DNA of 51,908 nt, taken from IMG/VR virus record IMGVR_UViG_3300047288_000217, positions 1 to 51,908 of that record. One strand, 5' to 3'. How positions within the stretch are numbered: position 1 is the first letter of the stretch; each line of letters opens with the position of its first letter. Below the pieces are notes generated by a model, which saw only the letters and a list, made by a program, of their open reading frames with translations, was not told the origin of the DNA and made no database searches. Positions 2,254-29,361 of the stretch are shown here, one piece after another. The position numbers and the translations under genes are program-made. The DNA is from a virus. Taxonomy: Duplodnaviria; Caudoviricetes.

Positions 2254-4908
2254 ATGCCTAAAGACACCCCATCAATCTTTTCCGTCAGCCCCTACGCCAG
2301 CAGCGTTGCTCGCGAAATGTACCCAGGCCAGCTTGGCCAGGATGACCGGCAGGACGCGGCGCGCCACATGCTGGCCGCTGGCACTATGGCACGCAAGTAC
2401 GGCCCAAAGGTTGCTGACTTTGCCGGTAAGGCGCACGAGTATTCCACGTCCCCGATGCGTGCTTTGATGATGATGCTTGGCCGTGGCGAGATGCCACCGG
2501 ATTACCAGCAAGACATGCACAACAACACTCTTGGGATTGAAATGGCTGTGCGAGCAAAGTCTCAGCGCGAGTTTGAAGACCTTGTGCAGCAGGCGGCCGA
2601 GCGCGCCGCGATGAGTCGCACCGAGGGTCGTCCCTGGATTAGCAAGGCCAAGGGTGGCGAAGTCAGCGCGGATGAATTGAACCGCCCGTACATCGGCTAC
2701 CGCTCCGCTGGCCGCCGCCCCGAGTCCCAGCAAGACAGAGCGGCGTCCTCCGTGGCTCCACTGGCTGCGTTGCGCGGCGCGGTATCGGGTGTGCTCGGCG
2801 CTCCCGGCGACATCGAGTCGTTGATCCGTATGCTGCCCGGCCTGTCAGAGCAGACCTTCCTGCCGACCAGCCGCGACGTCGAAGCTCGCTTGCCGTTGCG
2901 CGGCGTGAGCCAGACGCCCGTTGGCCGCGCCGCGACCGAGCTGGGCACGCTGGGCGGCGGGTTCTACACCGGGCCCGGCTCCCCGCTGCGTGCGATCGCT
3001 TCGCTGCCTGCGGCTGTGTCCCATGGCGCTGGCGAGTTCGCCCGTGCTGCTGGTGGCGCTGGCGCGCACGTTGTGAAACCCAAGGGCGGCAACTGGCTGT
3101 CCGGGACGGTTGAGCGAGTTGTTGAGCCGATGCGAGGTCGCGTAATTGGATCAGATCCAGCTCAACGTTTGCGTGATCTTGATGCCGCCTATGCTCAGAA
3201 TGTCGAGGCTGGCGTTGCTGTTGATCCTGAAGTTTTTGCAAGAGAACGCGCTCGGCTGGAGCCCGAAGCTGCCATCAACCGCTGGCTTGATACGAAACTT
3301 GCAAAATATTTCCGCAACGAGATGGCCACACCAGAAGACCCGCTGCGCGCACTGGCCGAGCGCGGCGTTTTGCACTACGACCCAACGCCAACAGGCTACA
3401 GCGTTTCAAAACAACGCATCGCCGCTGGATTCCCCGAAGAAGGCATGGCGCAATCCGACCTTGCAAAGCGATGGGAAAAACGTGCCGACACTTTCTTCAA
3501 CGAACTTCAAGCCTCCGATTTGACGCGCGGATATCCCGAGCTTGTTGAAAAAGACCCATGGCTTGCAAAAGTCCCACCTGAAACTCGCGTGTACGAACTT
3601 CTTGGCGGCGCGAATGAAGAGCTCGGAATGCAGCACCTGGTCGACGAGCTGAAAAACGCCATCAACCCAACGTCCGGTCTGCCCGAGAACCTGCGCTGGA
3701 AGTACCAGGACCTGGACAAGGTCACGGTGCCCCAGGCCGTTCAGCGCGTGGCGGACATCAACGCCTGGCGCGCGGCGCAAAAGGCCGAGGCTGACATGGC
3801 ACGAGCCATGGGACCGGCCACGCAGATTGTGAAGGAGTACCCGGAGCAGGGGTTTAAGTGGGTGGAGTTGAAGTTGCCCGAAAAAACAGGGAAAAAGGAA
3901 GCTCGAAGAATAGGGTCGGATGAGGCAGAAAGAATTGATGAGGGCGTTGATCGTCTTAATGAAGATGATCTGCAAGACTTTATTCGAGAGCAAGCAAAAG
4001 AAATGGGAATCAGGCGCGGGACTCCTGAATATGAAGAGCTTGCTCAAGAGTTAAAGAGAGATTTTGGCCCGGTCGAGAGCGAAGTAGACTCTGCTTACAA
4101 CATTCTCGAAGACGCCCTCAAGTACGAGGGCGAGACCATGGGCCACTGCGTCGGCGGCTACTGCCCGGATGTGGTCGAGGGCCGCTCCAAGATTTTCAGC
4201 CTGCGCGACAAGAAGGGGCAGCCGCATGTGACGATTGAGGTCAAGCCTGGGGTGGAAAATCCGTCGATTACTGAAGGTGAGTGGAAAGGTCAACGTCGCT
4301 TTATCGTCAACAACAAAGGAACTGGCTTTCCAACGATTGAAGAGGCCCAGCAATACGCTCGTGAAATAAGCACACCTGAAATCGTCCAGATCAAGGGCAA
4401 GGCCAACCGTGCGCCCAACCCCGAGTACCTGCCCGCCGTGCAAGACTTTGTGCGCAGCCAGCAGTGGGGACGAATTGGCGATCTGCAAAACACAGGCCTT
4501 GTCCAACTGCCCGACAAACGCCTGATCACTAAGGAGCAGTTCGACGAAGGTATCCAGCGCCTGACAGGCGAAGGCGAGCCAAGCGTGAACACTGAGTGGT
4601 TCCAGCAACAGATTAAGCGCGATCCGTCTTGGTGGGAGGAATCGAAGGGCGCTTTTGAAGGCTACGCTTTGGGCGGCCTGGTCCAGAAGTATGCCGCCGG
4701 TGGTCTGGTCATGGACCAGTCCAACATCTACGGCAGCGACGCCAAGCAGGACCCGGCGTCGGCCTACAAGTTCGCCGACGGTGGCCAGGCCGGATCGCCG
4801 CCGGCTTATGCCGAGGGTGGCTTGGTTGCGAATTCCCCCACAGTTGACTTCGACCCGGCTAGAATCGACTCCATCGTGGGCGAGCTCCACGCAATGAACG
4901 CAGGCTGA
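2254..4908 (+). CDS. Large multidomain protein (884 aa): N-terminal DA.RH...AHE...D.HNN..G domain, PcfJ-like domain, YAxGGxV repeats; probable virion-packaged protein
   Basis: QDAARHMLAAG..AHE..QDMHNNTLG; LKYEGETMGHCVGGY..IFSLRD..PHVTIEV..QIKGKANRAP (PcfJ-like); lies between terL and portal. Confidence 0.75.
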   Translation: MPKDTPSIFSVSPYASSVAREMYPGQLGQDDRQDAARHMLAAGTMARKYGPKVADFAGKAHEYSTSPMRALMMMLGRGEMPPDYQQDMHNNTLGIEMAVRAKSQREFEDLVQQAAERAAMSRTEGRPWISKAKGGEVSADELNRPYIGYRSAGRRPESQQDRAASSVAPLAALRGAVSGVLGAPGDIESLIRMLPGLSEQTFLPTSRDVEARLPLRGVSQTPVGRAATELGTLGGGFYTGPGSPLRAIASLPAAVSHGAGEFARAAGGAGAHVVKPKGGNWLSGTVERVVEPMRGRVIGSDPAQRLRDLDAAYAQNVEAGVAVDPEVFARERARLEPEAAINRWLDTKLAKYFRNEMATPEDPLRALAERGVLHYDPTPTGYSVSKQRIAAGFPEEGMAQSDLAKRWEKRADTFFNELQASDLTRGYPELVEKDPWLAKVPPETRVYELLGGANEELGMQHLVDELKNAINPTSGLPENLRWKYQDLDKVTVPQAVQRVADINAWRAAQKAEADMARAMGPATQIVKEYPEQGFKWVELKLPEKTGKKEARRIGSDEAERIDEGVDRLNEDDLQDFIREQAKEMGIRRGTPEYEELAQELKRDFGPVESEVDSAYNILEDALKYEGETMGHCVGGYCPDVVEGRSKIFSLRDKKGQPHVTIEVKPGVENPSITEGEWKGQRRFIVNNKGTGFPTIEEAQQYAREISTPEIVQIKGKANRAPNPEYLPAVQDFVRSQQWGRIGDLQNTGLVQLPDKRLITKEQFDEGIQRLTGEGEPSVNTEWFQQQIKRDPSWWEESKGAFEGYALGGLVQKYAAGGLVMDQSNIYGSDAKQDPASAYKFADGGQAGSPPAYAEGGLVANSPTVDFDPARIDSIVGELHAMNAG

Positions 4909-4913
4909 ACACC

Positions 4914-7433
4914 ATGGCAGACGAACTCCTGAACGAAGGCGAAGACGAAAACCCCAGCGAGGATGCGCAGCGCGGCGAGTCTGTCTCCCTGCCCGACGAG
5001 GACCTGGAGGTCGAGGACACCGAGGACGGCGGCGCCGTCATTCGGATGACCAACGAGCGCGATGTGGCCGACAAGAAGGCCCACTTCGCCAACATCGTCG
5101 ACGAGGTCGATCGCAGCATGCTGTCCGACGCGGTCGTTGACCTGCTCGACAAGATCGAGCGCGACAAGGACGCCCGCTCCAAGCGCGACAAGCTCTACGA
5201 GGAAGGCCTGCGCCGCACCGGCCTGGGCGACGATGCACCCGGCGGTGCTCAGTTCTCGGGGGCCAACAAGGTGGTGCACCCGATGCTGGTCGAGGCCTGC
5301 GTAGATTTCAGTGCCCGATTCATGAAGGAGGTTTTTCCGCCTTCCGGCCCGGTCAAGTCCAAGATTCTGGGCGAGGCAGAGCCCGAGAAGCTGGAGAAGG
5401 CTCGCCGCAAGGCCGAGTTCATGAATTGGCAGACCACGCAGCAAATGCCCGAGCTGCGCGGCGAGCTGGAGCAGCTGTCCACCCAGCTTCCCCTGGGCGG
5501 CGGTCAGTACCTCAAGCTCATGTGGTCCCCGCAGTGGAAGCGCCCGACGGCCGAGTTCATCGCCATCGACGACATCTACCTGCCGTTTGCGGCCACCAAC
5601 TTCTACTCTGCCGAGCGCAAGACGCACGTCCAGTACGTGACCAAGGCCGAGTTCAACCGCCGGATGAAGGCGGGTATGTATGCCGAGGTGGACATTGGCT
5701 CGCCCGATCAAGTCGAGTTCAGCAAGGCCACGATCGCCAACGACAAGATCGAGGGCCGCGAGGACACCAGCTACAACGAGGACGGCCTGCGGACCATCTT
5801 CGAGATTTACACCCACCTGGACTTTGGTGACGGCATGGATCCGTACATCATCAGCATCGACAAGTCCACGCGCAAGGCGCTCTCGCTGTACCGCAACTGG
5901 GAGCCAGAGGACCAGCGCCGCAAGGAGCTGGACTGGATTGTCGAGTTCCCGTTCGTGCCTTGGCGCGGTGCGTACCCGATTGGCCTGACCCACATGATCG
6001 GCGGCTTGTCGGGCGCAGCCACTGGCGCGCTGCGTGCGTTGCTGGACTCGGCACACATCCAAAACATCCCGACGCTTTTGAAACTCAAGGGCGGCCCCGG
6101 CGGCCAGACGATCAACCTGCAGCCGACCGAGGTGGTCGAGATCGAGGGCGGCGCTCTGGTCGACGACATTCGCAAGCTGGCCATGGCCCTGCCGTTCAAC
6201 GGCCCAAGTCCCACGCTGTTTCAGCTGCTCGGCTTCCTGGTGGACGCGGGCAAGGGCGTGGTGCAGACCTCGTTTGAGAAGCTGTCCGACCAAAACCCCA
6301 ACGCCCCAGTGGGCACTACCCTGGCGCTCATCGAGCAGGGCATGGTGGTGTTCAGCTCCATCCACTCGCGCCTGCACAACAGCATGGCACGGGTGTTTGC
6401 TATCCTGCACCGCATCAACAGCGCGTACCTGACCGAAGAGGACATCGAGGCCATGGAAAACGGCCTGGATGTGAAGCCCGAGGACTTCGACGGCCCGATG
6501 GACGTTGTGCCTGTGTCCGACCCGGCCATCTTCAGCGAGGCTCAGCGCTTCGCCCAGGTCCAGGCCGTGCAGGCCCGTGCGTCTGCCATGCCGCAGATGT
6601 ACGACCTGCGCAAGGTCGAGGAAATGTTCCTGCGCAACCTCAAGCTCAGCCCAGACGACGTGCTGCAGCCGCAGCCTGGCCAGGACGACGTCGACCCGGT
6701 CAGCGAGAACGTGGCCGCCTCGATGGGCCGCCCGGTCTACGTGCTGCCCAAGCAGGACCACGTGGCCCACATCCAGACGCACCTGGCTTTCCTGAAGTCG
6801 CCCATGTTCGGCATGAACCCGGCGATCATCAAGACCTACATCTACCCGATGGCGCAGCACCTGCGTGACCACCTGCTGAACTTCTACCTGACGCAGGCCC
6901 ACCAGGCCGTGCAGCGCGCCGAGCGCGAGAACCTGATCAGCAACGAGGCCGAGCAGCAGGTGCGCGTGATCGTGAAGGTCCAGCAGATCATCGAGCAGCA
7001 GCTGGCCAACTTCGCCCAGGACCTGGCCAAGATCGACGAGATCGCGCAGCAGTTTGCACCGCAGCCGCCGCAGATGCCGCAGGACAACAGCATGCAGATC
7101 GCGCAGCTCAATGCGCAGGTGCAGCAGCTGGCCCTGCAACAGCGTGCCCAGACGGACGCCGCTCGCTTGCAACTGGAGCAGCAGAAGGCCGCGCAAAGCG
7201 CCCAGGCCGACGCCGCTGCCCTGGCCGACAAGCAACAGGCGCGCGCAGAGGACCTGCAGCGCGAGCAGCTGCGTCAGGTCGCCGAGTCTCAGCGCACAGC
7301 GGCTGAAATTGACGCCCGCTTGCAGATGAACGACTCGGACAACGCCACGGCCATGCGCTTGGCGGCAGCAGAGATTGCCTCCGGCGAGAAAATCGCCGTG
7401 TCCACCGGCACCGGCATCAACCCTAACCCTTAA
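4914..7433 (+). CDS. Portal protein
   Basis: 839 aa after terminase; HPMLVEACVDFSARFMKEVFPPSGPVK and PVGTTLALIEQG..SSIHSRLH motifs of podoviral portals; Q-rich coiled-coil C-terminus. Confidence 0.85.
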   Translation: MADELLNEGEDENPSEDAQRGESVSLPDEDLEVEDTEDGGAVIRMTNERDVADKKAHFANIVDEVDRSMLSDAVVDLLDKIERDKDARSKRDKLYEEGLRRTGLGDDAPGGAQFSGANKVVHPMLVEACVDFSARFMKEVFPPSGPVKSKILGEAEPEKLEKARRKAEFMNWQTTQQMPELRGELEQLSTQLPLGGGQYLKLMWSPQWKRPTAEFIAIDDIYLPFAATNFYSAERKTHVQYVTKAEFNRRMKAGMYAEVDIGSPDQVEFSKATIANDKIEGREDTSYNEDGLRTIFEIYTHLDFGDGMDPYIISIDKSTRKALSLYRNWEPEDQRRKELDWIVEFPFVPWRGAYPIGLTHMIGGLSGAATGALRALLDSAHIQNIPTLLKLKGGPGGQTINLQPTEVVEIEGGALVDDIRKLAMALPFNGPSPTLFQLLGFLVDAGKGVVQTSFEKLSDQNPNAPVGTTLALIEQGMVVFSSIHSRLHNSMARVFAILHRINSAYLTEEDIEAMENGLDVKPEDFDGPMDVVPVSDPAIFSEAQRFAQVQAVQARASAMPQMYDLRKVEEMFLRNLKLSPDDVLQPQPGQDDVDPVSENVAASMGRPVYVLPKQDHVAHIQTHLAFLKSPMFGMNPAIIKTYIYPMAQHLRDHLLNFYLTQAHQAVQRAERENLISNEAEQQVRVIVKVQQIIEQQLANFAQDLAKIDEIAQQFAPQPPQMPQDNSMQIAQLNAQVQQLALQQRAQTDAARLQLEQQKAAQSAQADAAALADKQQARAEDLQREQLRQVAESQRTAAEIDARLQMNDSDNATAMRLAAAEIASGEKIAVSTGTGINPNP

Positions 7434-7445
7434 AAGGAGCCCACC

Positions 7446-7780: not shown

Positions 7781-7834
7781 TTTGCACCGGTCTGTGAAGA
7801 TTTTTTGATGGTGGCCGCTGTGGCCGCCGTACAC

Positions 7835-7853: not shown

Positions 7854-8264
7854 ATGACAGCTGACGCGCTGATTGACGCGATGAGAGAAGCCTTCCCCGA
7901 GGCAAGCCCTGGGATCGTCCCATTCGGGAGCCGAGTCTTGGTGCAGATCCGCACCCCCAAGACGAAAACGGCCTCCGGCATCATCATTGACAACGGCTCT
8001 CGGGACACCGAGAAGTGGAACACCCAGGTGGCGCGCGTCGTCTCCGTCGGTGCTCTGGCCTTCAAGAACCGAAACACCATGGACCCCTGGCCCGAAGGCA
8101 GCTGGTGCAGCCCGGGCGACTACGTTCGCGTGCCGAAATACGGCGGCGACCGCTGGGAAGTGCCGCTGTCCAACGGCGAGTCCGCTTTGTTCGTGATCTT
8201 CAACGATCTGGACATCATCGGCCAGGTGACCGGCGACCCGCTGGCCATCCGTGCATTCATCTGA
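7854..8264 (+). CDS. groES: GroES/Cpn10-like co-chaperonin
   Basis: PFGSRVLVQ..KTASGIII..ARVVSVG..PGDYVRVPKYGG..IFNDLDIIG follows the Cpn10 pattern. Confidence 0.85.
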   Translation: MTADALIDAMREAFPEASPGIVPFGSRVLVQIRTPKTKTASGIIIDNGSRDTEKWNTQVARVVSVGALAFKNRNTMDPWPEGSWCSPGDYVRVPKYGGDRWEVPLSNGESALFVIFNDLDIIGQVTGDPLAIRAFI

Positions 8265-8275: not shown

Positions 8276-8515
8276 ATGAGCGAAGAAACACGCGATCTGT
8301 CGTTCGGCGAGAGGGCCGTCGGCCTGACGTTCAACCCAGGCAACAACCCGGATGTGGACGCCTGCAAACGCGAGTTTGCCGCCGTCATCGACCGCATGGA
8401 TCTGTTGCGCGCAAAGGCGGAAAACGCCGAAATCAAGCGCATGGCCAGCGTCGCCATCACCGAAGCTCAGACTGCCCAGATGTGGGCTGTCAAAGCAATC
8501 ACCTGGAGGAGCTGA
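8276..8515 (+). CDS. Acb2/Tad1-hairpin-like protein (putative nucleotide-signal sponge), 79 aa
   Basis: Helical hairpin ending RMASVAITEAQTAQMWAVKAITW, like the R..A.A.T..E.A.MW helix of Tad1/Acb2-type proteins; ATG 8276. Confidence 0.55.
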   Translation: MSEETRDLSFGERAVGLTFNPGNNPDVDACKREFAAVIDRMDLLRAKAENAEIKRMASVAITEAQTAQMWAVKAITWRS

Positions 8516-8516
8516 C

Positions 8517-9005
8517 ATGGAACGTTACATCGGAACCAAACTGATCAACGCCAAGCCCATGACCCGGGCTGAGTACAACGCCTTCCGTGGCTGGACTGTC
8601 CCTGCCGACGAGAACCCCGAGGACGCAGGCTACCTGGTCGAGTACTTGGACGGCGGAAAAGGCAACACAGACCACTACGCCGGTTACGTGAGCTGGTCGC
8701 CAGCCGAAGTGTTCGACCGAGCCTACCGCAAGTGCAGCGGCATGACCTTTGGCCAAGCCATTGAGGCGCTGAAGGCAGGCCAAAAGGTCGCCCGCGCTGG
8801 CTGGAATGGCAAGGGCATGTTTGTCTACTACGTCCCCGCCAACAGCTACCCTGTGCAAACCGGCGCGGCCAAGAGCCACTTCGGCGAAGGCGCAATGGTC
8901 CCATACAACGCCTACATGGCGATCAAAAACGTGGACAACACCGTGAGCACTTGGGTACCCAGTGTCAACGACGTGCTGGCCGAAGACTGGAGCATTCAAT
9001 CATGA
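8517..9005 (+). CDS. Two-domain protein: N-terminal YIGTK..GYLVEY..SWSP domain plus DUF2829/Tad2-like sponge domain
   Basis: C-terminal half MTFGQAIEALKAGQKVARAGWNGKGMF...WVPSVNDVLAEDW is the DUF2829 signature; GGAGG RBS, ATG 8517. Confidence 0.8.
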   Translation: MERYIGTKLINAKPMTRAEYNAFRGWTVPADENPEDAGYLVEYLDGGKGNTDHYAGYVSWSPAEVFDRAYRKCSGMTFGQAIEALKAGQKVARAGWNGKGMFVYYVPANSYPVQTGAAKSHFGEGAMVPYNAYMAIKNVDNTVSTWVPSVNDVLAEDWSIQS

Positions 9006-9466
9006 GCACCGACGCACAAATCGAAGCCGAAATCCAAGCCAAGGGCAAGACCGCCCCGCGCATCACGCCTGCCGACATCGAGGCCAACATCTTTGAGGAG
9101 GTTTACTTCACAGCCGCCCAAGGCACGCTCGGCGCTGTGATTGCGCAAGCCAAAGAGCACTCGCCCGAGATCGTTGTCGGCTCGTTTGAAAACGCAAAGG
9201 CTCCACTCGACCTGTTGACTTTCTGCGTGCTCGTGTTGAAAAACGGATTCACCGTCACCGGCGAGTCGGCCTGCGCCAGCCCCGAGAACTTTGACGCCGA
9301 GATCGGCCGCAAGGTTGCTCGCGCCAACGCCGTGCAGAAAATCTGGCCGCTCATGGGCTACGAGCTGCGCAGCAAGCTGGCCGCCCAGGCCGCACACGAC
9401 GACGACTTCCCCCTCGGCAAAGCCTGCGACCTCTCCGGCGAAGGCACCTGCGAGGCCTGCCAATAA
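9002..9466 (+). CDS. N4 Gp49/Sf6 gp66 family protein (Acb4-like sponge) with Cys-rich C-terminal tail
   Basis: APRITPADIE..LTFCVLVLKNGFTVTGESACASPENFDAEIGRKVARANAVQKIWPLMGYEL signature; ATG 9002 overlaps upstream stop. Confidence 0.8.
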   Translation: MSTDAQIEAEIQAKGKTAPRITPADIEANIFEEVYFTAAQGTLGAVIAQAKEHSPEIVVGSFENAKAPLDLLTFCVLVLKNGFTVTGESACASPENFDAEIGRKVARANAVQKIWPLMGYELRSKLAAQAAHDDDFPLGKACDLSGEGTCEACQ

Positions 9467-11743: not shown

Positions 11744-12658
11744 ATGGCAACCCCAATGCGTAGTACGGACTTCCGGTCCGTTGTTGAGCCTATCCTCAAC
11801 GAAGTGTTCGACGGTGTTTACGAGCAGCGTGCGGACGAGTGGAAGCAAGTCTTCCGCGAGCAAAAAGGCATCCCGCGCAACTATCACGAAGAACCCGTCC
11901 TGTACGGCTTCGGTGCTGCGCCCGAGCTGCCTGACGGCATGGCAGTGACCTACCAATCCGGTGGCGTCCTGTTCCTGCAGCGCTACCTGTACAAGGTGTA
12001 CGGCCTGGCCTTCGCTTTGACCAAAGTTCTGGTTGAAGACGGCGACCACATCCGTATCGGTCAGACCTACGCCAAGCACCTGGCGCAGTCCCTGATCGAG
12101 ACCAAAGAAACCCTGGCTGCCAACATCCTGAACCGCGCTTTCAACGGCGCGTACACCGGTGGTGACGGCGTGTCCCTGGTTTCCCCGGCCCACCCGATCG
12201 TCAACGGCACGTTCAGCAACCAGCTGGCCACCGCCGCCGCCCTGTCGCAGACGTCCCTCGAGCAGATGCTGATCCAGATCCGCAATGCCGTGGACAACAA
12301 CGGCAAGCGCATCCGCCTGACACCCAAGAAGATCGTTTCCGGTCCTTCCAACGTGTTCCAGGCCGAAGTGCTGCTCAAGTCTGTGCTGCGCACCGGCACT
12401 GCCGACAACGACATCAACCCGGTGAAGTCGATGGGTCTGCTGGCCGAAGGCCAAGCCAACCTGTCTCGTATCACCAGCACCACCGCCTGGTGGGTGCAGA
12501 CCGACGCTCCCGAAGGTCTGAAGCTGATGATGCGCCGTGGTCTGGAAAAGTCCATGGAAGGCGACTTCGAAACCGACAGCATGCGTTACAAAGCCACCGA
12601 GCGTTACGCTCTGGGCTGGACTGACCCGCGCGGTGTGTTCGGAACGGCCGGAGTCTGA
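11744..12658 (+). CDS. Major capsid protein (Mu gpT-like, HK97 fold)
   Basis: 304 aa, strongly biased codons, GDGVSLVSPAHP..N and EGDFETDSMRYKATERYALGWTDPRGVFG C-terminus; AAGGAGG RBS. Confidence 0.88.
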   Translation: MATPMRSTDFRSVVEPILNEVFDGVYEQRADEWKQVFREQKGIPRNYHEEPVLYGFGAAPELPDGMAVTYQSGGVLFLQRYLYKVYGLAFALTKVLVEDGDHIRIGQTYAKHLAQSLIETKETLAANILNRAFNGAYTGGDGVSLVSPAHPIVNGTFSNQLATAAALSQTSLEQMLIQIRNAVDNNGKRIRLTPKKIVSGPSNVFQAEVLLKSVLRTGTADNDINPVKSMGLLAEGQANLSRITSTTAWWVQTDAPEGLKLMMRRGLEKSMEGDFETDSMRYKATERYALGWTDPRGVFGTAGV

Positions 12659-14614: not shown

Positions 14615-15034
14615 ATGGGCTGCAAATACGTCAAAGAGTTTGATTTCGGCACCAAAGGCAAAGACGGCTCTGTGAAGTACTGTGGCGGCGGCGCTGTCAA
14701 AAAGTACGCCGATGGCGGCAGCGTCAAGGCCGACATGAAGCAGGACAAGGCCATGGTCAAAGCTGCTGTGCATAAGCACGAGAAGGCCATGCACAAAGGC
14801 GAGCCCCTGACCAAGTTGGCCAAGGGCGGCAAGGTGCCCAAGGTCGAGGCGATGGAGAAGCGCGAGATGGCCGAGACGCCAACCATGCGCCGCGAGTCGG
14901 CCATGAGCAGCCGCAAGGTTGAGGCTCCAGCGCGTCGCTCGGTACCCGTTGCTCCCCGCGAGCCCATGCTGGCCATGAAGTCTGGCGGCAAGGTCTCCAA
15001 AATGATGTGCGGCGGCAAGGCTGGCAAGTACTGA
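14615..15034 (+). CDS. Basic Lys/Met-rich protein with five xxGGxV repeats
   Basis: YCGGGAV, YADGGSV, LAKGGKV, MKSGGKV, MMCGGKA; GGAG RBS. Confidence 0.8.
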   Translation: MGCKYVKEFDFGTKGKDGSVKYCGGGAVKKYADGGSVKADMKQDKAMVKAAVHKHEKAMHKGEPLTKLAKGGKVPKVEAMEKREMAETPTMRRESAMSSRKVEAPARRSVPVAPREPMLAMKSGGKVSKMMCGGKAGKY

Positions 15035-19168: not shown

Positions 19169-20572
19169 ATGTCGCAAGCAGGCTACACCCCGATCCAGCT
19201 CTATTACTCGACCACCGCTTCGACTGCTCCGTCCGCTGGCAACCTGGCCAACGGCGAGTTGGCGATCAACATCACGGACGGCAAGCTGTTCTACAAAGAC
19301 AACGGCGGCGTTGTGCAGGTGCTGGCCACGAAAGGCGCTGGCACCATCGGTGGCTCGAACACGCAGGTTCAGTACAACAGCTCTGGCGCCCTGGCCGGGT
19401 CTGCGAACCTGACGTTTGATGGCACCACACTGACGGCCTCTGGGTTGTCTGGCCCGCTGAACGGAACCGTGGGCGCAACAACGCCAAACACCGGCGCTTT
19501 CACCACACTGACGGCCTCTGGGTTGTTTTCGCTGACAGGGGATCAAGTTCAAGTCTCCGAAGGTGGAACTGGTGCCACAACCGCCATCAACGCACTAAGC
19601 AATCTCGGGTTCATCGCCTACAACGGCCTGTTCAGAAAAACCGACTCCACCATCGTCGCCTTCACCAAGACCGGTGCGGGTACAGCCACGACCTCTTCGA
19701 CCCTTTACGTCGAAGTCAACGGCAGCGTGAAGACCATTGCCAGCGGCGCATCTATCACCATGCCGACTCTGGCGGCAGGAACAGACTACGCAATCTGGGC
19801 CAAGACAGACGGCACACTTGAGGCCACCAGCAACCACACGTCCCCACCGACAGCCAACGCCCGCAAGATTGGCGGCTTCCACTACGCCCCGGGCGGTAAC
19901 GCCACAGGGCAGTCCGGTGGCAACACTACGGCACAAATCAACGAGTACTCGTTCTGGGATCTGAAATTCCGGCCCGTTTGTTCTGACCCACGAGGAATGA
20001 CGCTAGTTGGCGGCGGCTACTGGGTGGATATCTACCTCACGGGTGTGGACGCAATCACCAATGGATCATCCAAATACAACGTGACAATGGCGGATGGCGC
20101 TAGCCCTCCAAAAGTCCCGACCATGTTTGGCGGTAACGGCTCGACAACTTACGGCTCGTACACTTGGTTTGAGGCGATGGAGTTGGCGACTGCATTCGGT
20201 AAGCGTTGTCCTACACAGCAAGAGTTTATGTCTGCGATGTATGGCACAACCGAGGCATCGTCTGTTGGTTCTGACCAAGGTAGCACGATTCTCAATGCCG
20301 CCTACACGTCCAAATGGGGCGTTATCCAGGCTACTGGCGTGCTGTGGGTTTGGGGGCAAGAACGTGGCGGCGCGTACAACACAGGTGGCTGGAATGCCAA
20401 CACCGAAGGCCGTGGCTCCGAGTACAACGCACCCAATGCGGTGCTCCTTGGCGGCAACTGGAACAACGGGTCGAACTCCGGTTCACGTTGCTCGAGCTGG
20501 GCCAACGCGGCGTCGGACTCGGACTACCGCCTCGGTTCGCGCTTCGCCTGTGACCACCTGCAACTTGATTGA
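19169..20572 (+). CDS. mtd: DGR target: Mtd-like receptor-binding tail fibre protein with C-type-lectin-fold C-terminus
   Basis: NEYSFWDLKFRP..DPRGMTLV..SKWGVIQATG.LW.WG..GGNW..SGSR..GSRFACDHL closely resembles Bordetella phage BPP-1 Mtd as recalled; the N-terminal GELAINITDGKLFYKD domain differs. Confidence 0.92.
   Translation: MSQAGYTPIQLYYSTTASTAPSAGNLANGELAINITDGKLFYKDNGGVVQVLATKGAGTIGGSNTQVQYNSSGALAGSANLTFDGTTLTASGLSGPLNGTVGATTPNTGAFTTLTASGLFSLTGDQVQVSEGGTGATTAINALSNLGFIAYNGLFRKTDSTIVAFTKTGAGTATTSSTLYVEVNGSVKTIASGASITMPTLAAGTDYAIWAKTDGTLEATSNHTSPPTANARKIGGFHYAPGGNATGQSGGNTTAQINEYSFWDLKFRPVCSDPRGMTLVGGGYWVDIYLTGVDAITNGSSKYNVTMADGASPPKVPTMFGGNGSTTYGSYTWFEAMELATAFGKRCPTQQEFMSAMYGTTEASSVGSDQGSTILNAAYTSKWGVIQATGVLWVWGQERGGAYNTGGWNANTEGRGSEYNAPNAVLLGGNWNNGSNSGSRCSSWANAASDSDYRLGSRFACDHLQLD
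19423..19526 (+). repeat. Exact 26-bp direct repeat CACCACACTGACGGCCTCTGGGTTGT (19423-19448, 19501-19526)
   Basis: Read directly; encodes TTLTASGL twice. Confidence 0.9.
20436..20554 (+). repeat. DGR variable repeat (VR), 119 bp
   Basis: Matches 20977-21095 except at 20496, 20501, 20502, 20516, 20522, 20525, 20528, 20529 and 20531, all A in TR. Confidence 0.97.
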
Positions 20573-20588
20573 GGTGGCGAAAGCCACC
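20573..20588 (+). promoter_or_regulatory. DGR homing hairpin/cruciform downstream of VR/IMH
   Basis: GGTGGC-GAAA-GCCACC immediately after the target stop codon. Confidence 0.85.
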
Positions 20589-20599
20589 GGTAAGACTAA

Positions 20600-20965
20600 A
20601 TGGAACCAGTAAAGGACGCAGGAACGTGCTACGACCAAATGGCTATCGTCGAAAAGTACGAACGAGTCATCGCGTATCTGTATCCGATTGCGCAATCCAT
20701 GCCAAGAAAGCACGGGGTGGCGCGAGAGATGTTCTTGCAGTGCCTTTTGGGGGTCCCGGACTTGTTGTTTCAAGCTGGCAAGTCCAATCAGGTTTCAAAG
20801 ATTTACACCGCCGATGCGTCACTGGCGCAGGTGCGGTTTTGGATGCGATTCCTGCACTCGATAAAAGCAATGACCACGCACCAAATTCAGACAGCCCAAG
20901 TGCTGCTAGCAGAAGTTGGTGCGATGGTCGGGGCTTGGATCAAGCGCAGGCAAAAGCAGGGGTAG
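20600..20965 (+). CDS. avd: DGR accessory variability determinant
   Basis: 121 aa, CYDQMAIVEKYERVIAYLYPIAQSMPRKHGVAREMFL..GKSNQVSK..EVG..GAWIK; between target and TR. Confidence 0.93.
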   Translation: MEPVKDAGTCYDQMAIVEKYERVIAYLYPIAQSMPRKHGVAREMFLQCLLGVPDLLFQAGKSNQVSKIYTADASLAQVRFWMRFLHSIKAMTTHQIQTAQVLLAEVGAMVGAWIKRRQKQG

Positions 20966-20976
20966 GCTGGGTCAAT

Positions 20977-21095
20977 ATGCGGTGCTCCTTGGCGGCAACT
21001 GGAACAACGGGTCGAACTCCGGTTCACGTTGCTCGAACTGGAACAACGCGGCGTCGAACTCGAACAACAACATCGGTTCGCGCTTCGCCTGTGAC
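20977..21095 (+). ncRNA. DGR template repeat (TR); functional RNA probably includes the avd 3' end and the 21096-21243 spacer
   Basis: 11 AAC codons in the VR frame, 26 adenines; diverges from VR after TGTGAC (IMH vs IMH*). Confidence 0.95.
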
Positions 21096-21243
21096 GACAT
21101 CACATCATCGCTCTGTGCCTGCTACGGCGGCACAGGCAGACCAATCTAAGTGTGGTCAGCCAGTTCTATCCTCCTTCGGGAAATACGTTACTCGGTTCAC
21201 CATAGCGCCTAGTAGGAAATCGAAAAGCGCGGGTGGCATTTTT

Positions 21244-22227
21244 ATGGCAAAGAGACATTACAACCTGATCGAGCAGATAGCCAACATGGACAATCTGCGG
21301 CTCGCCCTTGACAGAACGGCACGTGGCAAAAAGATGACCTACGGCTATCTGGAGTTCAAGGAGTTTGCTGAGGCCAACTTGCTGGAAGTGCAGCAAGAGC
21401 TGATGGATGGCGCATACAAGATCGGCCCGTATAGGGAGTTCACCGTCTACGAGCCAAAGCCTCGCCAGATTTCCGCGCTGGACTTCAAAGACAGGCTGGT
21501 GCAGCACGCGCTGTGCAATGTCGTTGCGCCCATATTTGACCAAGCACTGCTGCCACAGACATTTGCCTGCCGCACCGGTTTCGGCACGCATGCAGGCGTG
21601 CGGTTTGTGCAGTCCAAGCTACGTTACACCGAAGCAAAGTATTTTCTCAAGACGGACTATTCAAAGTTCTTTCCGAGCATCGACAGGACAATCTTGCACA
21701 ACATGATTGAGAGAAAGATCGGGTGCAAGCGAACGCTTGAGATTTTCAGGGTGATTGTCCCGCCGGTCGGCAAAGGCTTACCCATTGGAAGCCTGACCAG
21801 CCCGTTGCTTGCCAATACCTACGGGAACGCCTCAGATCGGTTTGTACACTTCGACCTCGGCCACAGACACTGGGCTCGGTACATGGACGACATCGTGATT
21901 TTGAGCGACGACAAAGACCGACTCATGGACAGCTTTCTGCGCCTGAACGACTTTTCAATGAACCGCCTGAAGCTGCGCATCGGCAAGTGGCAAATCTCGC
22001 CAACCTCACGAGGCGTGAATTTCCTCGGGTACCGCATCTGGGCATCGCACAAACTGCTTCGCAAGGATTCGGTTCTGCGCGCAAAGCGCAAGGTTGCCAA
22101 CTTCATCCGCCACAAGGACGATGAAGGCCTGAGAAAATTCACAGCATCATGGTCTGGCCACGCACAATGGGCGGACACGCACAATCTTTTCAAATGGATG
22201 GAGCGCCGACATGGCATCACTTTCTAA
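21244..22227 (+). CDS. brt: DGR reverse transcriptase (327 aa)
   Basis: EPKPRQISALDFKDRLVQHAL, KTDYSKFFPSID, GLPIGSLTSP, RYMDD, GVNFLGYRI; ATG 21244. Confidence 0.96.
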   Translation: MAKRHYNLIEQIANMDNLRLALDRTARGKKMTYGYLEFKEFAEANLLEVQQELMDGAYKIGPYREFTVYEPKPRQISALDFKDRLVQHALCNVVAPIFDQALLPQTFACRTGFGTHAGVRFVQSKLRYTEAKYFLKTDYSKFFPSIDRTILHNMIERKIGCKRTLEIFRVIVPPVGKGLPIGSLTSPLLANTYGNASDRFVHFDLGHRHWARYMDDIVILSDDKDRLMDSFLRLNDFSMNRLKLRIGKWQISPTSRGVNFLGYRIWASHKLLRKDSVLRAKRKVANFIRHKDDEGLRKFTASWSGHAQWADTHNLFKWMERRHGITF

Positions 22228-23572: not shown

Positions 23573-24202
23573 ATGTACACGATGACGTACAGCAGCCTGC
23601 TAGAGGATCTTCGCCGATACCTTGAGCGGGGTTTTACAGCCGAAAGCGACCAGCTCGTCTACGAGCAACTGCCGCGCCTGATTACCCTGGGTGAGCGCCG
23701 CATTTCGCGCGAGCTCAAGATTCAAGGCTTCATCCGGGCCGTCACCACACCCCTGCAAACCGGCGTTGCCACCTACCGCAAGCCCGACCGCTGGCGCGAC
23801 ACGGTGAGCATGACCGTTGATGGCGCTCCGATCTTTGCGCGCGCCTACGAGTACTGCCGCAACTACTGGCCCGACGAGGCCCAGACCGGTGCACCGCAGT
23901 TCTATGCCGACTACGATTACAACCACTGGCTTATCACGCCGACGCCAAACGCAAACAGCACGCTTGAGGTGATGTACTACGAGCAGCCGCGTTTCTTGGG
24001 CGAGGACTTCCAGACCAACTGGCTGACCGAGTACGCCCCCGACCTGCTGCTGTACGCCTCCTTGCTGGAGGCCACTCCGTTCCTGAAAAATGACCAGCGA
24101 ATCGGCACGTGGCAGCAGCTCTACGACCGCGCGGCCCAGGCGCTCAACGGCGAGGACCTCAAGAAAATCATGGACCGCAGCGCCCAAAGGACTGAAGCAT
24201 GA
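23573..24202 (+). CDS. Head-tail adaptor / tail tubular protein A-like
   Basis: TYSSL..LITLGERRISREL..GAPQFYA..ITPTP..NWLTEYAPDLLLYASLLEA. Confidence 0.7.
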   Translation: MYTMTYSSLLEDLRRYLERGFTAESDQLVYEQLPRLITLGERRISRELKIQGFIRAVTTPLQTGVATYRKPDRWRDTVSMTVDGAPIFARAYEYCRNYWPDEAQTGAPQFYADYDYNHWLITPTPNANSTLEVMYYEQPRFLGEDFQTNWLTEYAPDLLLYASLLEATPFLKNDQRIGTWQQLYDRAAQALNGEDLKKIMDRSAQRTEA

Positions 24203-25398: not shown

Positions 25399-27227
25399 TG
25401 CCAACCCAGATCCTGCGCTCCCAGCCGGGCATCAAACGCGACGGCACCAAGTTCGAAGGCGACTTCTACGTCGACGGACAGTGGGTGCGGTTTCAGCGCG
25501 GCCTGCCTCGCAAGATCGGTGGGTACCGCTCGATCTCCAAGTACCTGACCGAGATTTCGCGCGGCTTCATGAGCTTCACGCAGCAGCTGTTGCAGTATTG
25601 CCACAGCGGCGGCCCGAGCACGCTTGAGCGATTCACGATCGACGCCAGCAAGAACAGCAGCCTGATTTCCAACCGCACCCCGGTGGCCGTGGCCGCAACT
25701 GGCACTGTGACGCTCACGGGCGGCGCTGGCGGCTCTGTGGACGGCATCACGGTCAACGGCGTGCAGATCATGTCCGGCGCGGTGACGTTCACCGTCGACC
25801 TGGCCACCACGGCTGCGGCGGTGGCCACCAACATCAACCTGCACACCTCGATCCCGGATTACACTGCTGTGGCTGTCGGACCGGTGATCACGATCACGGC
25901 CGCAACCGCAGGCGTTGCCACCAACGGCTACGTGGTCGCGGCGGCAACAACGACCATCACGGCCACCGACACGGACATGGTGGGCGGCTCGGACGCGCTG
26001 GCCGCCTCGGATGCCAATCGCTGGATGTTCCAGGCGGTCTACGACTCCTCGACCGCTTACAACGCGCTGCTCGCGCACGTCTCGCCTAACGGACGCTGTC
26101 TGTGCAACGATGTGGGCGGGCAGATTTTCTACGGCGACCTGCTGGGCACCGCACCGCTGAAAAGCGTGCAGCTTCCCGCTGGTGCCAACGCCACCGGCGG
26201 CATTGTGGCGCTGCACCCGTACCTGTTCTACTACGGCACCGCTGGCATCATCGGCTGGTCCGTGGCCGGCGAGCCCACCGACCTGACTGGCTCCGGCTCT
26301 GGCATCGCCCGGGTGTGGAGCCAGAAAATTGTCAAGGGCATGCCCCTGCGCGCAGGATCGGGCTCGGCACCGGCTGGCATCTTCTGGGCCTACGATGCGG
26401 TGATTCGTGCCACCTTCACGGGCGGCTCGACGGTGTTCCAGTTCGACACAATTGCCACCGACACCTCCATCATGTCGGCAGACTCGGTGGTCGATTACGA
26501 CGGGGTGTTTTTCTGGGCCGGCGTGGACCGGTTCTTCATGTTCAACGGCGTGGTGCGTGATGTGCCCAACCAGATGAACATCAACTACTTCCTCGAGGGA
26601 CTGAACCCGCAGCAGCACAGTAAGGTGTTTGCCTGGAAGGTGCCGCGCTTCGGCGAAATCTGGTGGGCATACCCGAAGGGCGACGCCACCGAATGCACGC
26701 ACGCCGTGATCTACAACGTGCGCGAAAACACCTGGTACGACACCGCGCTGCCGACCTCTGGCCGATCGGCCGGCGGCTACAACAACGCCTTCATGTCGCC
26801 CATCCTGGTCGATGCCGTTCCGACCACCAGCGGCTACCGCACCTGGGTGCATGAGCAGGGCGTCGACGAGATCGACGGCACGCTGGCCGCGCCCATCCAG
26901 TCCTACTTCGAAACGGCGGACCTGTCGTCCATCGTGCAGGGCCAGGACGGCTATCTGCGCATCACCACGATCGAGCCGGACTTCGTGCAAAAGGGCCCGA
27001 TGACCGTGCAGATCACCGGCCGCGCCAACGCCCGCGCCCCCGAGGTGGTCAGCTCGATCTTCACCTTCCCCGAGCAGGCCGACCAGCCTTTCGAGCAGAT
27101 CGTGATGCTCAAGGAGCAGCGCCGCGAGCTGCGCGCCCGCTTTGAGTCCAACGCGCTGTACGGCGACTACCAGATGGGCCAGATCATTGCGCACATCGAA
27201 TCTGGCGACAGGACGGTGCTGGGATGA
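25398..27227 (+). CDS. Tail nozzle / tubular protein B-like (beta-propeller) protein
   Basis: ATG 25398 overlaps upstream stop; PGIKRDGT..WVRFQRGLPRKIGG..FGEIWWAYP..VIYNVRENTWY; 609 aa. Confidence 0.7.
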   Translation: MPTQILRSQPGIKRDGTKFEGDFYVDGQWVRFQRGLPRKIGGYRSISKYLTEISRGFMSFTQQLLQYCHSGGPSTLERFTIDASKNSSLISNRTPVAVAATGTVTLTGGAGGSVDGITVNGVQIMSGAVTFTVDLATTAAAVATNINLHTSIPDYTAVAVGPVITITAATAGVATNGYVVAAATTTITATDTDMVGGSDALAASDANRWMFQAVYDSSTAYNALLAHVSPNGRCLCNDVGGQIFYGDLLGTAPLKSVQLPAGANATGGIVALHPYLFYYGTAGIIGWSVAGEPTDLTGSGSGIARVWSQKIVKGMPLRAGSGSAPAGIFWAYDAVIRATFTGGSTVFQFDTIATDTSIMSADSVVDYDGVFFWAGVDRFFMFNGVVRDVPNQMNINYFLEGLNPQQHSKVFAWKVPRFGEIWWAYPKGDATECTHAVIYNVRENTWYDTALPTSGRSAGGYNNAFMSPILVDAVPTTSGYRTWVHEQGVDEIDGTLAAPIQSYFETADLSSIVQGQDGYLRITTIEPDFVQKGPMTVQITGRANARAPEVVSSIFTFPEQADQPFEQIVMLKEQRRELRARFESNALYGDYQMGQIIAHIESGDRTVLG

Positions 27228-27451
27228 TCATCACACTGCCCACCGGCATGGACCTCATGGACTGGTCCGCCCAGGTCATCCTCGACCTCGACTCCTACGG
27301 AGCCTTCGGACGCCTGAAGGATCCGGAGCGCTGGCAGGATTGGGGTGTGCAGTTCCTGAACAACACGACGATTGGGCGAAACTTGCCGAATCCTTACGGT
27401 TTTAACGATTGGAAAGAATGGGCCGAGAGGCTGGTTGGAGCACTGTCATGA
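27224..27451 (+). CDS. Small Trp-rich conserved protein
   Basis: WQDWG..LPNPYGFNDWKEWAERL; coupled on both sides. Confidence 0.75.
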   Translation: MIITLPTGMDLMDWSAQVILDLDSYGAFGRLKDPERWQDWGVQFLNNTTIGRNLPNPYGFNDWKEWAERLVGALS

Positions 27452-29361
27452 ATCAAGAAATTTTGAACCTTATCCAGAGCAACCCGCAGGCCATGCAGGC
27501 CGTTGGCGAGGCCATCCAGGAGATCATGAACGACGAGGACGTCTCGCCGGAGGCTGTTGACCAGCTCACGCAGATCGTCGAGAGCACGCTCCAAAACCCC
27601 GGCCTGTATCCGCAAACGCGGATGGCCATGATCGAGTCCAACCTGATCGACGCGGACGACCTGCCCGAGCAGTTCGACGAGGTTCTGCTGACCGTGCTGC
27701 TGATCGCGCTCAAGGTCGTGCAAAGCCAGCTCCAGGCAGGCAACACACCCCGTTTCGCACGCGGCGGTCTCAACCAGATTGCACGCATGGGCCGCTACGG
27801 CGACACCATGCTGGCCCACATTTCGCCCGAGGAAGCCCGGATGCTTCGCGCTCGCGGCGGCTCCGGCACGATCAACCCTCAAACGGGCCTGCCTGAGTTC
27901 TGGAGCCTGAAAAAAGCCCTGAAAAAAGTCTTTAAGGCTGTTGCGCCTGTTTTGCCCATCGTCCTGAGCTTTGTGGCCCCTGGCCTGGGGACCGCCATCG
28001 GTACCGCCTTGGGAGCCTCGGGCACAGCTGCCAGCATGCTTGGCAGCGCAGCAATCGGTGGCCTGTCCTCCGCTGCCGCTGGAGGCGATGCGCTGAAGGG
28101 CGCAATCGGCGGGGCCCTGGGCGCTGGCGCTGGTGGTGCTTTGGGCAGCGCGATTGGCGATGCCACGGGTATGACGCTGAGCAACACGGCGCAAAACGTG
28201 CTGGGCAGCTCCCTGATTGGCGGCGCACAAAGCGCGGCCACCGGTGGTGATTTCCTGACAGGCGCTGTTCAAGGCGGCCTTGGCGGCTATGCAGGCAGCA
28301 CGCTCTCTGGCGCGGCCAGCGGCCTTGAGGGCAAGCTCGGCGCTGGATTGCAGACCGCAGGCACGCAGTTTGGCAACGCGCTCACCATGGGCGCGGACCC
28401 CAAGCAGGCGCTGGCCCAGGGCGCTTTGTCTGGATTAGCCGCTGCTTATGCGGCCCCGGCGGCACCAGAGCCAAAATCAATCTACGACATCACGCCCACC
28501 GAGACTGGCGGTCTTGGCCTGAAGGCTCCTTCGGACATTGCCATCGAAGGCCTGAAAGCTCCGGCCGTGAACACCGCCAGCTTCCCATCGGCTGGCCTTG
28601 GCGTGGATTACAGCGTGGACAGCGGCATGACGCCAACGTTCAAAGGCCCAGAAACCATGGCGGCAGATTATTCGCTGTACAGCCAACCTCAAGCCTCCAC
28701 CGTATCAGCGCAGCCCGAAATGGGCACAGGCATTCAGGCATCGCCTCTGAACGCGATCGCGGCCCAAACGGCAGCTGGAACACCTGGAACCAGTGGGACA
28801 GTTGGCAACGCACCAGCCAACAAAGGTTTCAGCATCGGCACTGCGGCCAACATGCTGCCCCTGTTGTCTCTGTTCAGCGCCGCCGAAACGCCCGAGCAGG
28901 TGCAGCAGGTGGTCGCGCAGATGACGCCAGAGCAGCAGGAGTACTTCAACCGCCCGATGCGCACCTGGAATTGGGACACGCTCAGCGCGGCCGCCAAGAT
29001 TCAGGGCCTGCCGATCGGCAGCTACATCGCCCGCAATTGGGACAAGGTCGGCGGCGGCATGTACGACAACCCCGTCGAGGAAGCTCCCAAGCAGCTGGCC
29101 CGTGGCGGCGCTTTGAACCGCCTGGCCCGTGGCGGCGGCTCTGGCCGCGACGACACCATCGATGCCAAGTTGTCGGACGGCGAGTACGTGATGGACGCCG
29201 AGACCGTGGCGCTTTTGGGCGACGGTTCGACCACCGCTGGGGCTCGCCGACTGGACCAGATGCGGGCTAAAATCCGCGAACACAAAGGCAAATCGATGGC
29301 CCGGGGCAAGTTCAGCGCGAACGCCAAATCGCCGTTGGCATACTTGAAAGAGAGCGCATAA
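27448..29361 (+). CDS. Internal virion/ejection protein (637 aa)
   Basis: GRYGDTMLAHISPEEA..GSGTINPQTGLPEF, Gly/Ala hydrophobic tract, C-terminal GRDDTIDAKLSDGEYVMDAETV; ATG 27448. Confidence 0.7.
   Translation: MNQEILNLIQSNPQAMQAVGEAIQEIMNDEDVSPEAVDQLTQIVESTLQNPGLYPQTRMAMIESNLIDADDLPEQFDEVLLTVLLIALKVVQSQLQAGNTPRFARGGLNQIARMGRYGDTMLAHISPEEARMLRARGGSGTINPQTGLPEFWSLKKALKKVFKAVAPVLPIVLSFVAPGLGTAIGTALGASGTAASMLGSAAIGGLSSAAAGGDALKGAIGGALGAGAGGALGSAIGDATGMTLSNTAQNVLGSSLIGGAQSAATGGDFLTGAVQGGLGGYAGSTLSGAASGLEGKLGAGLQTAGTQFGNALTMGADPKQALAQGALSGLAAAYAAPAAPEPKSIYDITPTETGGLGLKAPSDIAIEGLKAPAVNTASFPSAGLGVDYSVDSGMTPTFKGPETMAADYSLYSQPQASTVSAQPEMGTGIQASPLNAIAAQTAAGTPGTSGTVGNAPANKGFSIGTAANMLPLLSLFSAAETPEQVQQVVAQMTPEQQEYFNRPMRTWNWDTLSAAAKIQGLPIGSYIARNWDKVGGGMYDNPVEEAPKQLARGGALNRLARGGGSGRDDTIDAKLSDGEYVMDAETVALLGDGSTTAGARRLDQMRAKIREHKGKSMARGKFSANAKSPLAYLKESA

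Follow-up and report, generated by a model that had tools for sequence, protein, structure and literature searches.

The capsid targeting sequence of bacteriophage T4 is an N-terminal, single-copy peptide of ~10 amino acids (aa) that binds to the core of the scaffold and that the prohead protease cleaves off at L-x-E. Virion-internal precursors of adenovirus, African swine fever virus and poxviruses are cut during maturation at sites where x-G-G follows a hydrophobic residue; these cuts fall after Gly-Gly and are made by a packaged cysteine protease of clan CE. Here we describe a peptide motif, [YF(KLMR)]-A-x-G-G-x-V, in three late proteins encoded by the viral DNA of IMG/VR record IMGVR_UViG_3300047288_000217 (Caudoviricetes; positions 1 to 51,908, hereafter the window), a complete contig of 51.9 kb with ~61% G+C and a podophage-type late operon. 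The motif-bearing proteins belong to three classes: a polyvalent-type protein with a PcfJ core encoded just upstream of the portal gene (884 aa), a basic, disordered family encoded in the head-adaptor slot (139 aa), and a tape-measure-like protein that is the first of the ejection proteins (650 aa). The motif is a short linear motif located in disordered linkers and forms a portable joint at the ends of exchangeable modules. Proteins that exit the virion together with the DNA are probably cut or docked at this motif.

The closest described counterpart is a joint in siphophage tape-measure proteins (lambda gpH at ~733-785, T5 pb2 at ~R1127 and mycobacteriophage Douge gp16), in which [FY]AxGG precedes a GE[FY]V-type strand. 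In gpH and pb2, the motif lies close to the maturation cut, and the region is unresolved in the structures checked. The 650-aa protein has two joints of this kind. Unlike the siphophages, however, the window phage is a podophage without a tail tube, and 10 of its 14 motif copies are found in two proteins that lack the GE[FY]V strand. In addition, significant matches of the 650-aa protein are limited to Douge gp16 and the tape-measure-like proteins of phage DSL-LC04 and Caulobacter phages, with none to gpH or pb2.

The 884-aa protein resembles the polyvalent proteins, a portal-adjacent class with swappable effector domains, for which packaging and injection are predicted (Iyer et al., 2017; PMC5512222). 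It is likewise a large multi-module protein, its gene lies between those of the large terminase and the portal here and in relatives, and some relatives carry the ART-PolyVal domain. As this class is known, the original prediction of an undescribed cargo-delivery system was too strong. The sections of PMC5512222 that treat the class propose that the MPTase metallopeptidase domain carries out processing and that MuF or portal fusions determine packaging, and the linker motif does not appear there. Pfam detected neither MPTase, MuF nor a portal fusion in the 884-aa protein or in the 7 + 47 relatives scanned.

The T4 targeting sequence is also a short portable peptide with a cleavage site, which loads varied head cargo for injection (Alt and the internal proteins; Alt is included in the corresponding part of PMC5512222). 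In contrast, the window motif is internal or C-terminal, present in multiple copies and also found in tail-lumen proteins, and no prohead protease was recognized among the late open reading frames (ORFs). The eukaryotic viral sites differ in that the sole mapped phage precedent, T5, is cut before Ala, and no adenain/Ulp-like protease of clan CE was found in 28 + 11 late and 21 other ORFs, although a divergent enzyme is conceivable. A limited literature search retrieved no paper naming the shared junction motif. What is new is that a short-tailed phage has the motif in three separate proteins, of which only one is tape-measure-like, and that this three-slot pattern is conserved across the lineage.

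An AxGG peptide in three late proteins

The original prediction had listed about 13 copies, some of them degenerate. All 13 were located at their coordinates and in their frames, and a 14th, RARGGSG, was identified in the 650-aa protein (Table 1). The strict form [YFLM]AxGGxV occurs five times in the three proteins (three copies in the 884-aa, two in the 139-aa and none in the 650-aa protein), compared with 0.025 expected from their own composition. It has no match in the 29 other late ORFs and the 30 early ORFs, and the six frames of the window contain only one other strict match, on the opposite strand. The looser form [YFLM]AxGG was observed nine times in the three proteins (0.48 expected), and the broadest class 13 times (1.4 expected), compared with four times elsewhere (5.6 expected). 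In 1000 shuffles per protein, the observed counts were never reached except for the broadest class in the 650-aa protein (42/1000). The motif is thus enriched above Gly/Ala composition in these late proteins and absent from the early arms, the latter in line with the original prediction.

The motif was defined post hoc, after the data had been seen. In an unbiased ranking of exact gapped words, YA.GG.V was the first of its class (4 observed, 0.024 expected), and the four-residue words A.GG.V and YA.GG ranked third and fifth, respectively. Because the motif was chosen after looking and the shorter words are not top-ranked, the window statistics by themselves are suggestive of a non-random motif, and the comparative data are decisive.

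Codons vary among the motif copies, indicating that the conserved unit is the peptide and not a DNA repeat. Five of the seven positions are constrained, with GG at 100%, A at 85-97%, V at 75-86% and an aromatic or long residue at position 0. The degenerate copies KAKGGEV, MKSGGKV, MMCGGKA and YCGGGAV align with conserved or canonical copies in relatives.

Conservation of the motif at module boundaries

The portal search found 246 related stretches, of which 80 loci were kept. A six-frame census for the strict pattern [YF]AxGGx[VIL] covered 103 related IMG/VR loci (1,350,806 bases) and returned 172 matches, 170 of them on the gene strand. Homologues of the 884-aa and 139-aa proteins account for 96 and 32 matches, respectively, and one match each falls in a homologue of the 650-aa protein and of a 432-aa protein. 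Two ORFs most similar to the 119-aa gene directly upstream of the pre-portal gene contain eight matches; one of these ORFs (L079_448_4341) sits between the terminase and portal genes. The remaining 32 matches are in ORFs without a match. Among the motif-bearing ORFs without a match, 21 are at least 60 aa long, and these occupy either the terminase-portal slot (18) or the head-adaptor slot (3). The motif is present in all 53 distinct homologues of the 884-aa protein at the related loci.

The nearest cultured relatives are, in order of portal identity, Caulobacter phages RW and RLK (58%), ctpbd312 (46%), Roseobacter phage CRP-901 (37%) and DSL-LC04 (34%). DSL-LC04 encodes a PcfJ-like pre-portal protein with three copies, which are N-terminal there, a 114-aa post-portal protein with one copy, and a protein annotated as a tape measure with two copies, each preceding a GE element; no [YF]AxGGx[VIL] was found outside the frames of these three proteins. 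In ctpbd312, four copies are present in an unrelated pre-portal protein of 890 aa, five in a basic, Lys/Gly-rich protein of 449 aa in the capsid-adaptor slot, and two in the homologue of the 650-aa protein. The 449-aa protein (L111:29844-31193), a far longer counterpart of the 139-aa protein, has five [YFK]AxGGx[VI] copies and several K-K-G-G-K variants. In Caulobacter phage RLK, the motif is confined to the C-terminal module of the 650-aa homologue; at 36966-37039 of this genome, a tRNA-Val gene replaces the pre-portal cargo gene of the window. Only one broad-class match was found in CRP-901 and only three loose matches in T7. In BPP-1, a high-GC podophage with a diversity-generating retroelement, broad-class matches are scattered over the six frames, with none in structural proteins. 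These negative cases indicate that the motif system is lineage-specific and not a by-product of G+C content. BPP-1 had been considered as a relative on account of its Mtd/reverse-transcriptase cassette and was rejected, as its structural module is different and the motif system is missing.

The 884-aa protein is organized as a DUF6973 N-module, a motif copy, the PcfJ-like core, a motif cluster and a conserved C-terminal tail. The first copy, KAKGGEV, corresponds to YAKGGEV or YAEGGEV in relatives, and where the N-module is missing or replaced, BLAST matches begin at residues 130-143, that is, at this copy. A common architecture was recognized in 37 relatives of 193-1453 aa: a variable N-module, the motif, a PcfJ-like core of ~650 aa, one or more motifs, optional inserts, the motif again and a tail of 33-35 aa. 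In an alignment of 29 tails (A4), G19, G20 and V22 are invariant. In P0272, the ART-PolyVal domain (702-847) is flanked by motif copies at 656 and 854, and in P0300 (domain at 721-857) by copies at 672 and 864; DUF6973, N-terminal in the window, lies between motifs at 793 and 941 in P0388. ART-PolyVal is present in two of the 72 relatives scanned, and the window protein carries DUF6973 and PcfJ-like domains, which have no assigned activity. Part of the pre-portal relative of locus L032 matches residues 15-303 of the 650-aa protein. Among 514 internal BLAST end-points, which are not mutually independent, 15% fall within 5 aa of a motif, compared with 2% of random positions.

A profile of the motif and tail matched 461 representative proteins at E≤0.001, 122 of them at E≤1e-10. 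The best 150 of these matches are in proteins of 58-1761 aa, and the match is nearly always C-terminal. Of the 145 newly listed proteins, 139 have a motif no more than 60 aa from the C-terminus; 25 of the 145, at most 130 aa long, were left out, several of which look like fragments or products of miscalled starts. The 47 largest tail-bearing representatives include 21 with PcfJ, four with ART-PolyVal, two with DUF6973, one with DUF4214 and 23 without a Pfam family.

In split-gene relatives, the N-module is an ORF of its own that ends in K-A-x-G-G-x-V followed by a conserved 14-aa peptide, and other stand-alone N-modules end in Y-A-x-G-G-A-V followed by 14-20 aa. Separate ORFs for the DUF6973 N-module are located at L048:4179-4637, L018:3078-3539, L009:208-744 and L025:2728-3264. 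The end of the split ORF (the motif and RSPLNH[VI]KECSCGR) is encoded in a different frame and extends over the beginning of the core gene. The split-gene form looks stable because this alternative frame is conserved at the protein level.

The 139-aa protein (isoelectric point 9.9, 18% Lys) is predicted to be largely disordered. Its AlphaFold2 model has a mean predicted local distance difference test score (pLDDT) of 56.9, with the motifs in coil and no fold for the motif regions. The database contains 351 homologues, and the motif was found in 119 of 120 among the matches listed. In an alignment of 86 sequences, A-x-G-G of the second copy, L-A-x-G-G of the third and K-x-G-G of the fourth show at least 90% conservation or are invariant. 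Cassette gains and losses in relatives map exactly to the intervals between motif copies; for example, a 49-aa insert at the third copy ends in a second LAKGG. The PDB search with the family profile gave nothing meaningful (best E 1.3, a designed protein), and the ESM Atlas returned only viral clusters without names for this protein. T7 gp6.7 and gp7.3, tried as analogues, were rejected since they contain only loose G-G words. Residues 51-68 (14765-14821) form a nearly invariant His cluster, A-V-H-K-H-E-K-x-x-H-x-G-x-P-x-T-K-L, in the sole long predicted helix of the family, which may be a metal site. Some family members have an additional DUF6496 domain at the C-terminus.

The 650-aa protein probably starts at 27448, since its database form (P0126) is 637 aa long. 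Its motif copies are unlike the others in having R at +2 and lacking V at +6, and they flank two strands. Each module takes the lambda gpH-type form AxGG ... D-[ST]-I-x-A-x-L-S-x-G-E-[FY]-V, of which the motif forms the flanks. The joint-module pattern, [FY/L]AxGG followed within ~10-25 residues by D-[ST]-h-x-A-x-h-[ST]-x-[GE]-E-[FYx]-[VM], occurs twice, at residues 116-146 and 572-596, and no such strand was found beside the 10 copies in the 884-aa and 139-aa proteins. A copy is kept before each GE-type strand in all 20 locus homologues, and among the matches listed, 117 of 120 homologues have at least two copies of [YFLMKRW][AS]xGG. At the first module, residues 121-164 match DSL-LC04, Methylophilales phage Venkman and a Manatee Spring phage by tblastn. 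The C-terminal module matches the Douge tape measure gp16 (phmmer E 9.5e-5), which has two GE[FY]V elements, and a tape-measure-like protein of a Caulobacter phage (tblastn 5e-17), and its profile scores 38 bits on the tape-measure-annotated protein of DSL-LC04 and 90 bits on those of Caulobacter phages. In lambda gpH, the fetched sequence contains FATGGF at 733, GEFV at 754 and YATGGYV at 778, the same order of motif, strand and motif as in the 650-aa protein. AlphaFold2 predicted a confident helical N-domain for the 650-aa protein and pLDDT <50 in both modules, again without a fold for the motif regions. The PDB sequence search with the C-terminal module found only Douge gp16, in which residues 1658-1699 are modelled and the module is not, and according to the structural part of PMC12617516 only residues 818-849 of lambda gpH are modelled. 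The motif is present in none of the solved structures checked.

These results establish that the motif is non-random, conserved at the peptide level, confined to given gene slots, located at cassette boundaries and common to siphophage tape-measure proteins. Its placement at domain boundaries and termini, proposed from the window alone, is supported by the BLAST starts, the architecture of the 37 relatives, the AlphaFold2 model and the end-point enrichment, and its portability by its presence in unrelated proteins at module junctions and termini. The resemblance to siphophage tape measures is likewise borne out by the lambda gpH motif and the match of the GE[FY]V element to Douge gp16, both features being present in the DSL-LC04 and RLK proteins. 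The original interpretation therefore holds for a real, portable, peptide-level motif at junctions and goes too far on the novelty of the delivery system, since the polyvalent class had already been described.

Cleavage, docking and other readings

We tentatively favor the reading in which the motif is recognized for a maturation cleavage that would free modules from anchoring elements, and assign it a probability of about 40%. It is preferred because of the cut site in T5 pb2 and the C-terminal loss in lambda gpH. As reported in the passages of PMC10038345 on pb2, this protein is cut after R1127, a site mapped by mass spectrometry. In the fetched sequence (FVPR/AEGGMMYPG, with the slash at the cut), this is directly before A-E-G-G, one of only two A.GG sites in 1219 residues; by a post-hoc estimate, the chance of the cut coinciding with the start of A.GG is ~2 in 1218. 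T5 pb2 is the one experimental precedent for the cleavage-site idea of the original prediction. The pertinent part of PMC12617516 states that lambda gpH sheds ~14 kDa from its Gly-rich C-terminal region and that the site and mechanism of this cleavage are unknown. FATGGF, GEFV and YATGGYV all lie within the structurally unresolved part of the cleaved fragment, gpHC, and a cut at F733/A734 would release 12.5 kDa, compared with the ~14 kDa reported.

Under the maturation cleavage that we favor, the cut would separate the large residue at position 0 from the Ala that follows, the same point as at the mapped T5 pb2 site. Once assembly is complete, cleavage would detach the cargo modules from their anchors, which would be the [FY]DPxxIDxIV tail in the pre-portal protein and, in the ejection protein, the GE[FY]V modules, and the freed modules could exit via the portal and tail channel along with the DNA. 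Candidates for the cutting agent are a host protease, an unrecognized phage enzyme and assembly-dependent self-cleavage. More speculatively, and with clear doubt on our part, a single code [FY]AxGGxV read by a single agent in long- and short-tailed phages might govern the tethering and release of effector modules for injection. The cuts of gpH, a 40-year-old puzzle, and of pb2 would then be special cases, and the code would have spread from the ejection protein to the polyvalent cargo and to the basic protein as a peptide precursor.

Several observations weigh against cleavage. The precedents come from T5 and lambda, not from this phage or its relatives, and T5 has Arg where most copies of the window lineage have Phe or Tyr. 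The C-terminal module profile gives 0.6 bits on lambda gpH and 0.4 bits on T5 pb2, no better than the T7 gp16 control (0.8 bits), so that the link to lambda and T5 is at the motif level only. No peptidase family was detected with Pfam or PHROG at the thresholds used in the 28 + 11 late and 21 other ORFs. The presence of the three proteins in the virion is presumed from gene order and relatives. Cutting the 139-aa protein at all copies would yield peptides of 9-53 residues, and 72% of the internal BLAST end-points lie more than 25 aa from any motif. Finally, the stand-alone N-modules retain the motif and 14-20 residues at their end, which a pure inter-domain cut site would not require, whereas a docking tag would.

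This last point favors the main alternative, which is somewhat less likely overall and in which the motif stays uncut and acts as a docking or co-assembly strand, an extended peptide that folds on binding and bundles the cargo with the ejection protein for joint loading and expulsion. It may bind to further copies of the motif, to the GE[FY]V strand of the tape-measure or ejection protein, or to the wall of the portal or tail channel. Docking would explain why the last copy is always joined to the conserved tail close to the C-terminus in the representatives, and why the full gpH-type module of the 650-aa protein and lambda gpH takes the form motif, strand, motif. The low pLDDT of the monomer model in both 650-aa modules fits folding on assembly, the variable and often tandem copy number suggests multivalency, and the pre-portal protein of L032 includes a segment like part of the 650-aa protein. 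The retained motifs of the stand-alone modules, the multivalency and the monomer disorder suit docking better than cleavage. However, the modelled parts of Douge gp16 and lambda gpH leave the motif outside the solved structures checked, and the siphophage motif belongs to a protein of the tail lumen, which never comes into contact with the portal or capsid, so that the partner would have to be generic. It is unlikely that the motif is instead a passive linker or recombination joint, a favored flexible end-cap read by no factor and kept because module shuffling occurs there. The gain, loss and movement of cassettes at the motif, the enrichment of BLAST end-points near it and its location in predicted disordered segments would all suit a linker. 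Nevertheless, the copies differ in codons and span only ~21 nt, which is too short and degenerate for homologous exchange. A flexible linker would not need five constrained positions across oppositely charged proteins and across phages with 34-46% portal identity, and other multi-domain late proteins encoded in the genome lack the motif.

Still less probable is a signal read after ejection in the host envelope, by a periplasmic protease or chaperone or through binding to the cell wall or membrane, that would release or position the modules. T5 pb2C begins at the motif and carries a reported muralytic stretch, and its release into the periplasm has been proposed in the parts of PMC10038345 and PMC12617516 on this fragment; a title cited in PMC10038345 names 'selective host involvement' in T5 tail protein cleavage. 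The same two sources, where they treat maturation, place the cutting of the T5 and lambda tape measures in the cytoplasm during tail assembly, before infection, and none of the present results concerns the periplasm. Chance or the composition of Gly/Ala-rich proteins in a genome of this G+C content is very improbable. It could account for degenerate copies such as MMCGGKA and LARGGG, for the shuffles that reached the broadest class in the 650-aa protein, and for the rank of four-residue words such as YA.GG in the window alone. It is refuted by the conservation in relatives, taken with the window enrichment and the census, and the few matches in BPP-1, T7 and CRP-901 also argue against it.

Genome context and significance

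The positions of the motif copies, their proteins and neighboring late genes are given in Table 1.

Table 1. Motif copies, associated elements and selected late genes in the window
Feature	Position	Strand	Remarks
Large terminase	249-1982	+	Late operon
884-aa pre-portal protein	2254-4908	+	Pfam DUF6973 at residues 8-116, PcfJ at 621-665
KAKGGEV	2644-2664	+	Junction of N-module and core
YALGGLV	4663-4683	+	
YAAGGLV	4690-4710	+	
FADGGQA	4771-4791	+	FADGGQA or FADGGFA kept in relatives
YAEGGLV	4807-4827	+	Start of conserved C-terminal tail
Tail element DFDPARIDSIVGELHAMNAG, form [FY]DPxxIDxIV	4846-4905	+	C-terminus of 884-aa protein
Portal gene	4914-7433	+	PHROG 1216; defines the pre-portal slot
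GroES/Cpn10-like protein and N4 gp49 / Sf6 gp66 family protein	7854-8264 and 8951-9466		Between portal and capsid genes
Tad2-like protein	8352-9005		Late operon; Thoeris anti-defence Tad2-like domain PF11195 at residues 131-215, E 1.9e-26
Capsid	11744-12658	+	Late operon
139-aa basic protein	14615-15034	+	Between head and adaptor genes
YCGGGAV	14678-14698	+	YAKGGAV or YAMGGKV in relatives
YADGGSV	14705-14725	+	A32, G34, G35 at least 90% conserved (86 sequences)
LAKGGKV	14816-14836	+	L68, A69, G71, G72 at least 90% conserved (86 sequences)
MKSGGKV	14975-14995	+	G124, G125 invariant, K122 at least 90% conserved (86 sequences)
MMCGGKA	15002-15022	+	Weakest copy; in part of the family only
Tape-measure-like first ejection protein	27409-29361	+	ORF of 650 aa; database form P0126 of 637 aa
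FARGGLN	27754-27774	+	Opens N-terminal gpH-type module; kept in 20/20 locus homologues
Central strand GDTMLAHISPEEARML, module 1	27799-27846	+	Counterpart of D-T-I-x-A-x-L-S-x-G-E-Y-V, read from sequence
RARGGSG	27847-27867	+	Closes module 1; G137, G138 (P0126 numbering) at least 90% conserved in alignment A3
LARGGAL	29095-29115	+	In 14/20 locus homologues
LARGGGS	29122-29142	+	Opens C-terminal gpH-type module; kept in 20/20 locus homologues
Central strand DDTIDAKLSDGEYVMD, module 2, GE[FY]V element	29149-29196	+	

The late operon on the + strand also encodes SU10-type adaptors, an Mtd and reverse-transcriptase cassette, a GH108 endolysin and four large proteins, the first of which is the 650-aa protein. 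Pfam and PHROG scans of the window ORFs found no tail tube, sheath or recognizable protease. A GroES-like gene is in the same position in DSL-LC04, CRP-901 and ctpbd312. A diversity-generating retroelement spans 19169-22227. It comprises an Mtd-like receptor-binding gene (19169-20572; Pfam Mtd second domain) with a 122-nt variable repeat (20436-20557), a small ORF (20600-20965), a template repeat (20977-21098) that is 92% identical to the variable repeat, and the reverse transcriptase downstream of this template, whose ORF is listed as 20569-22227 and whose true start is probably 3′ of the template repeat. Early genes at 36854-40863 and 46596-51906 include those for DUF2303, RecT, a YqaJ-like exonuclease, a sigma-70 region 4 protein, a DEAD/ResIII helicase and a PriCT-2/Toprim primase, the ORF of which continues past the end of the window.

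Even as a mere linker, the motif would still be a useful marker of module boundaries in these proteins. If it is a processing or docking code, it would provide a candidate, open to testing, for where and how lambda gpH is cleaved, both of which the relevant part of PMC12617516 calls unknown, as well as a sequence rule for spotting injected phage proteins in metagenomes, and it may permit the loading of foreign proteins into phage particles in laboratory systems. Should the single code hold, any cassette would join the injected payload once flanked by the motif. A processing or docking code would also explain how podophage cargo proteins are organized around swappable enzyme cassettes such as ADP-ribosyltransferases.

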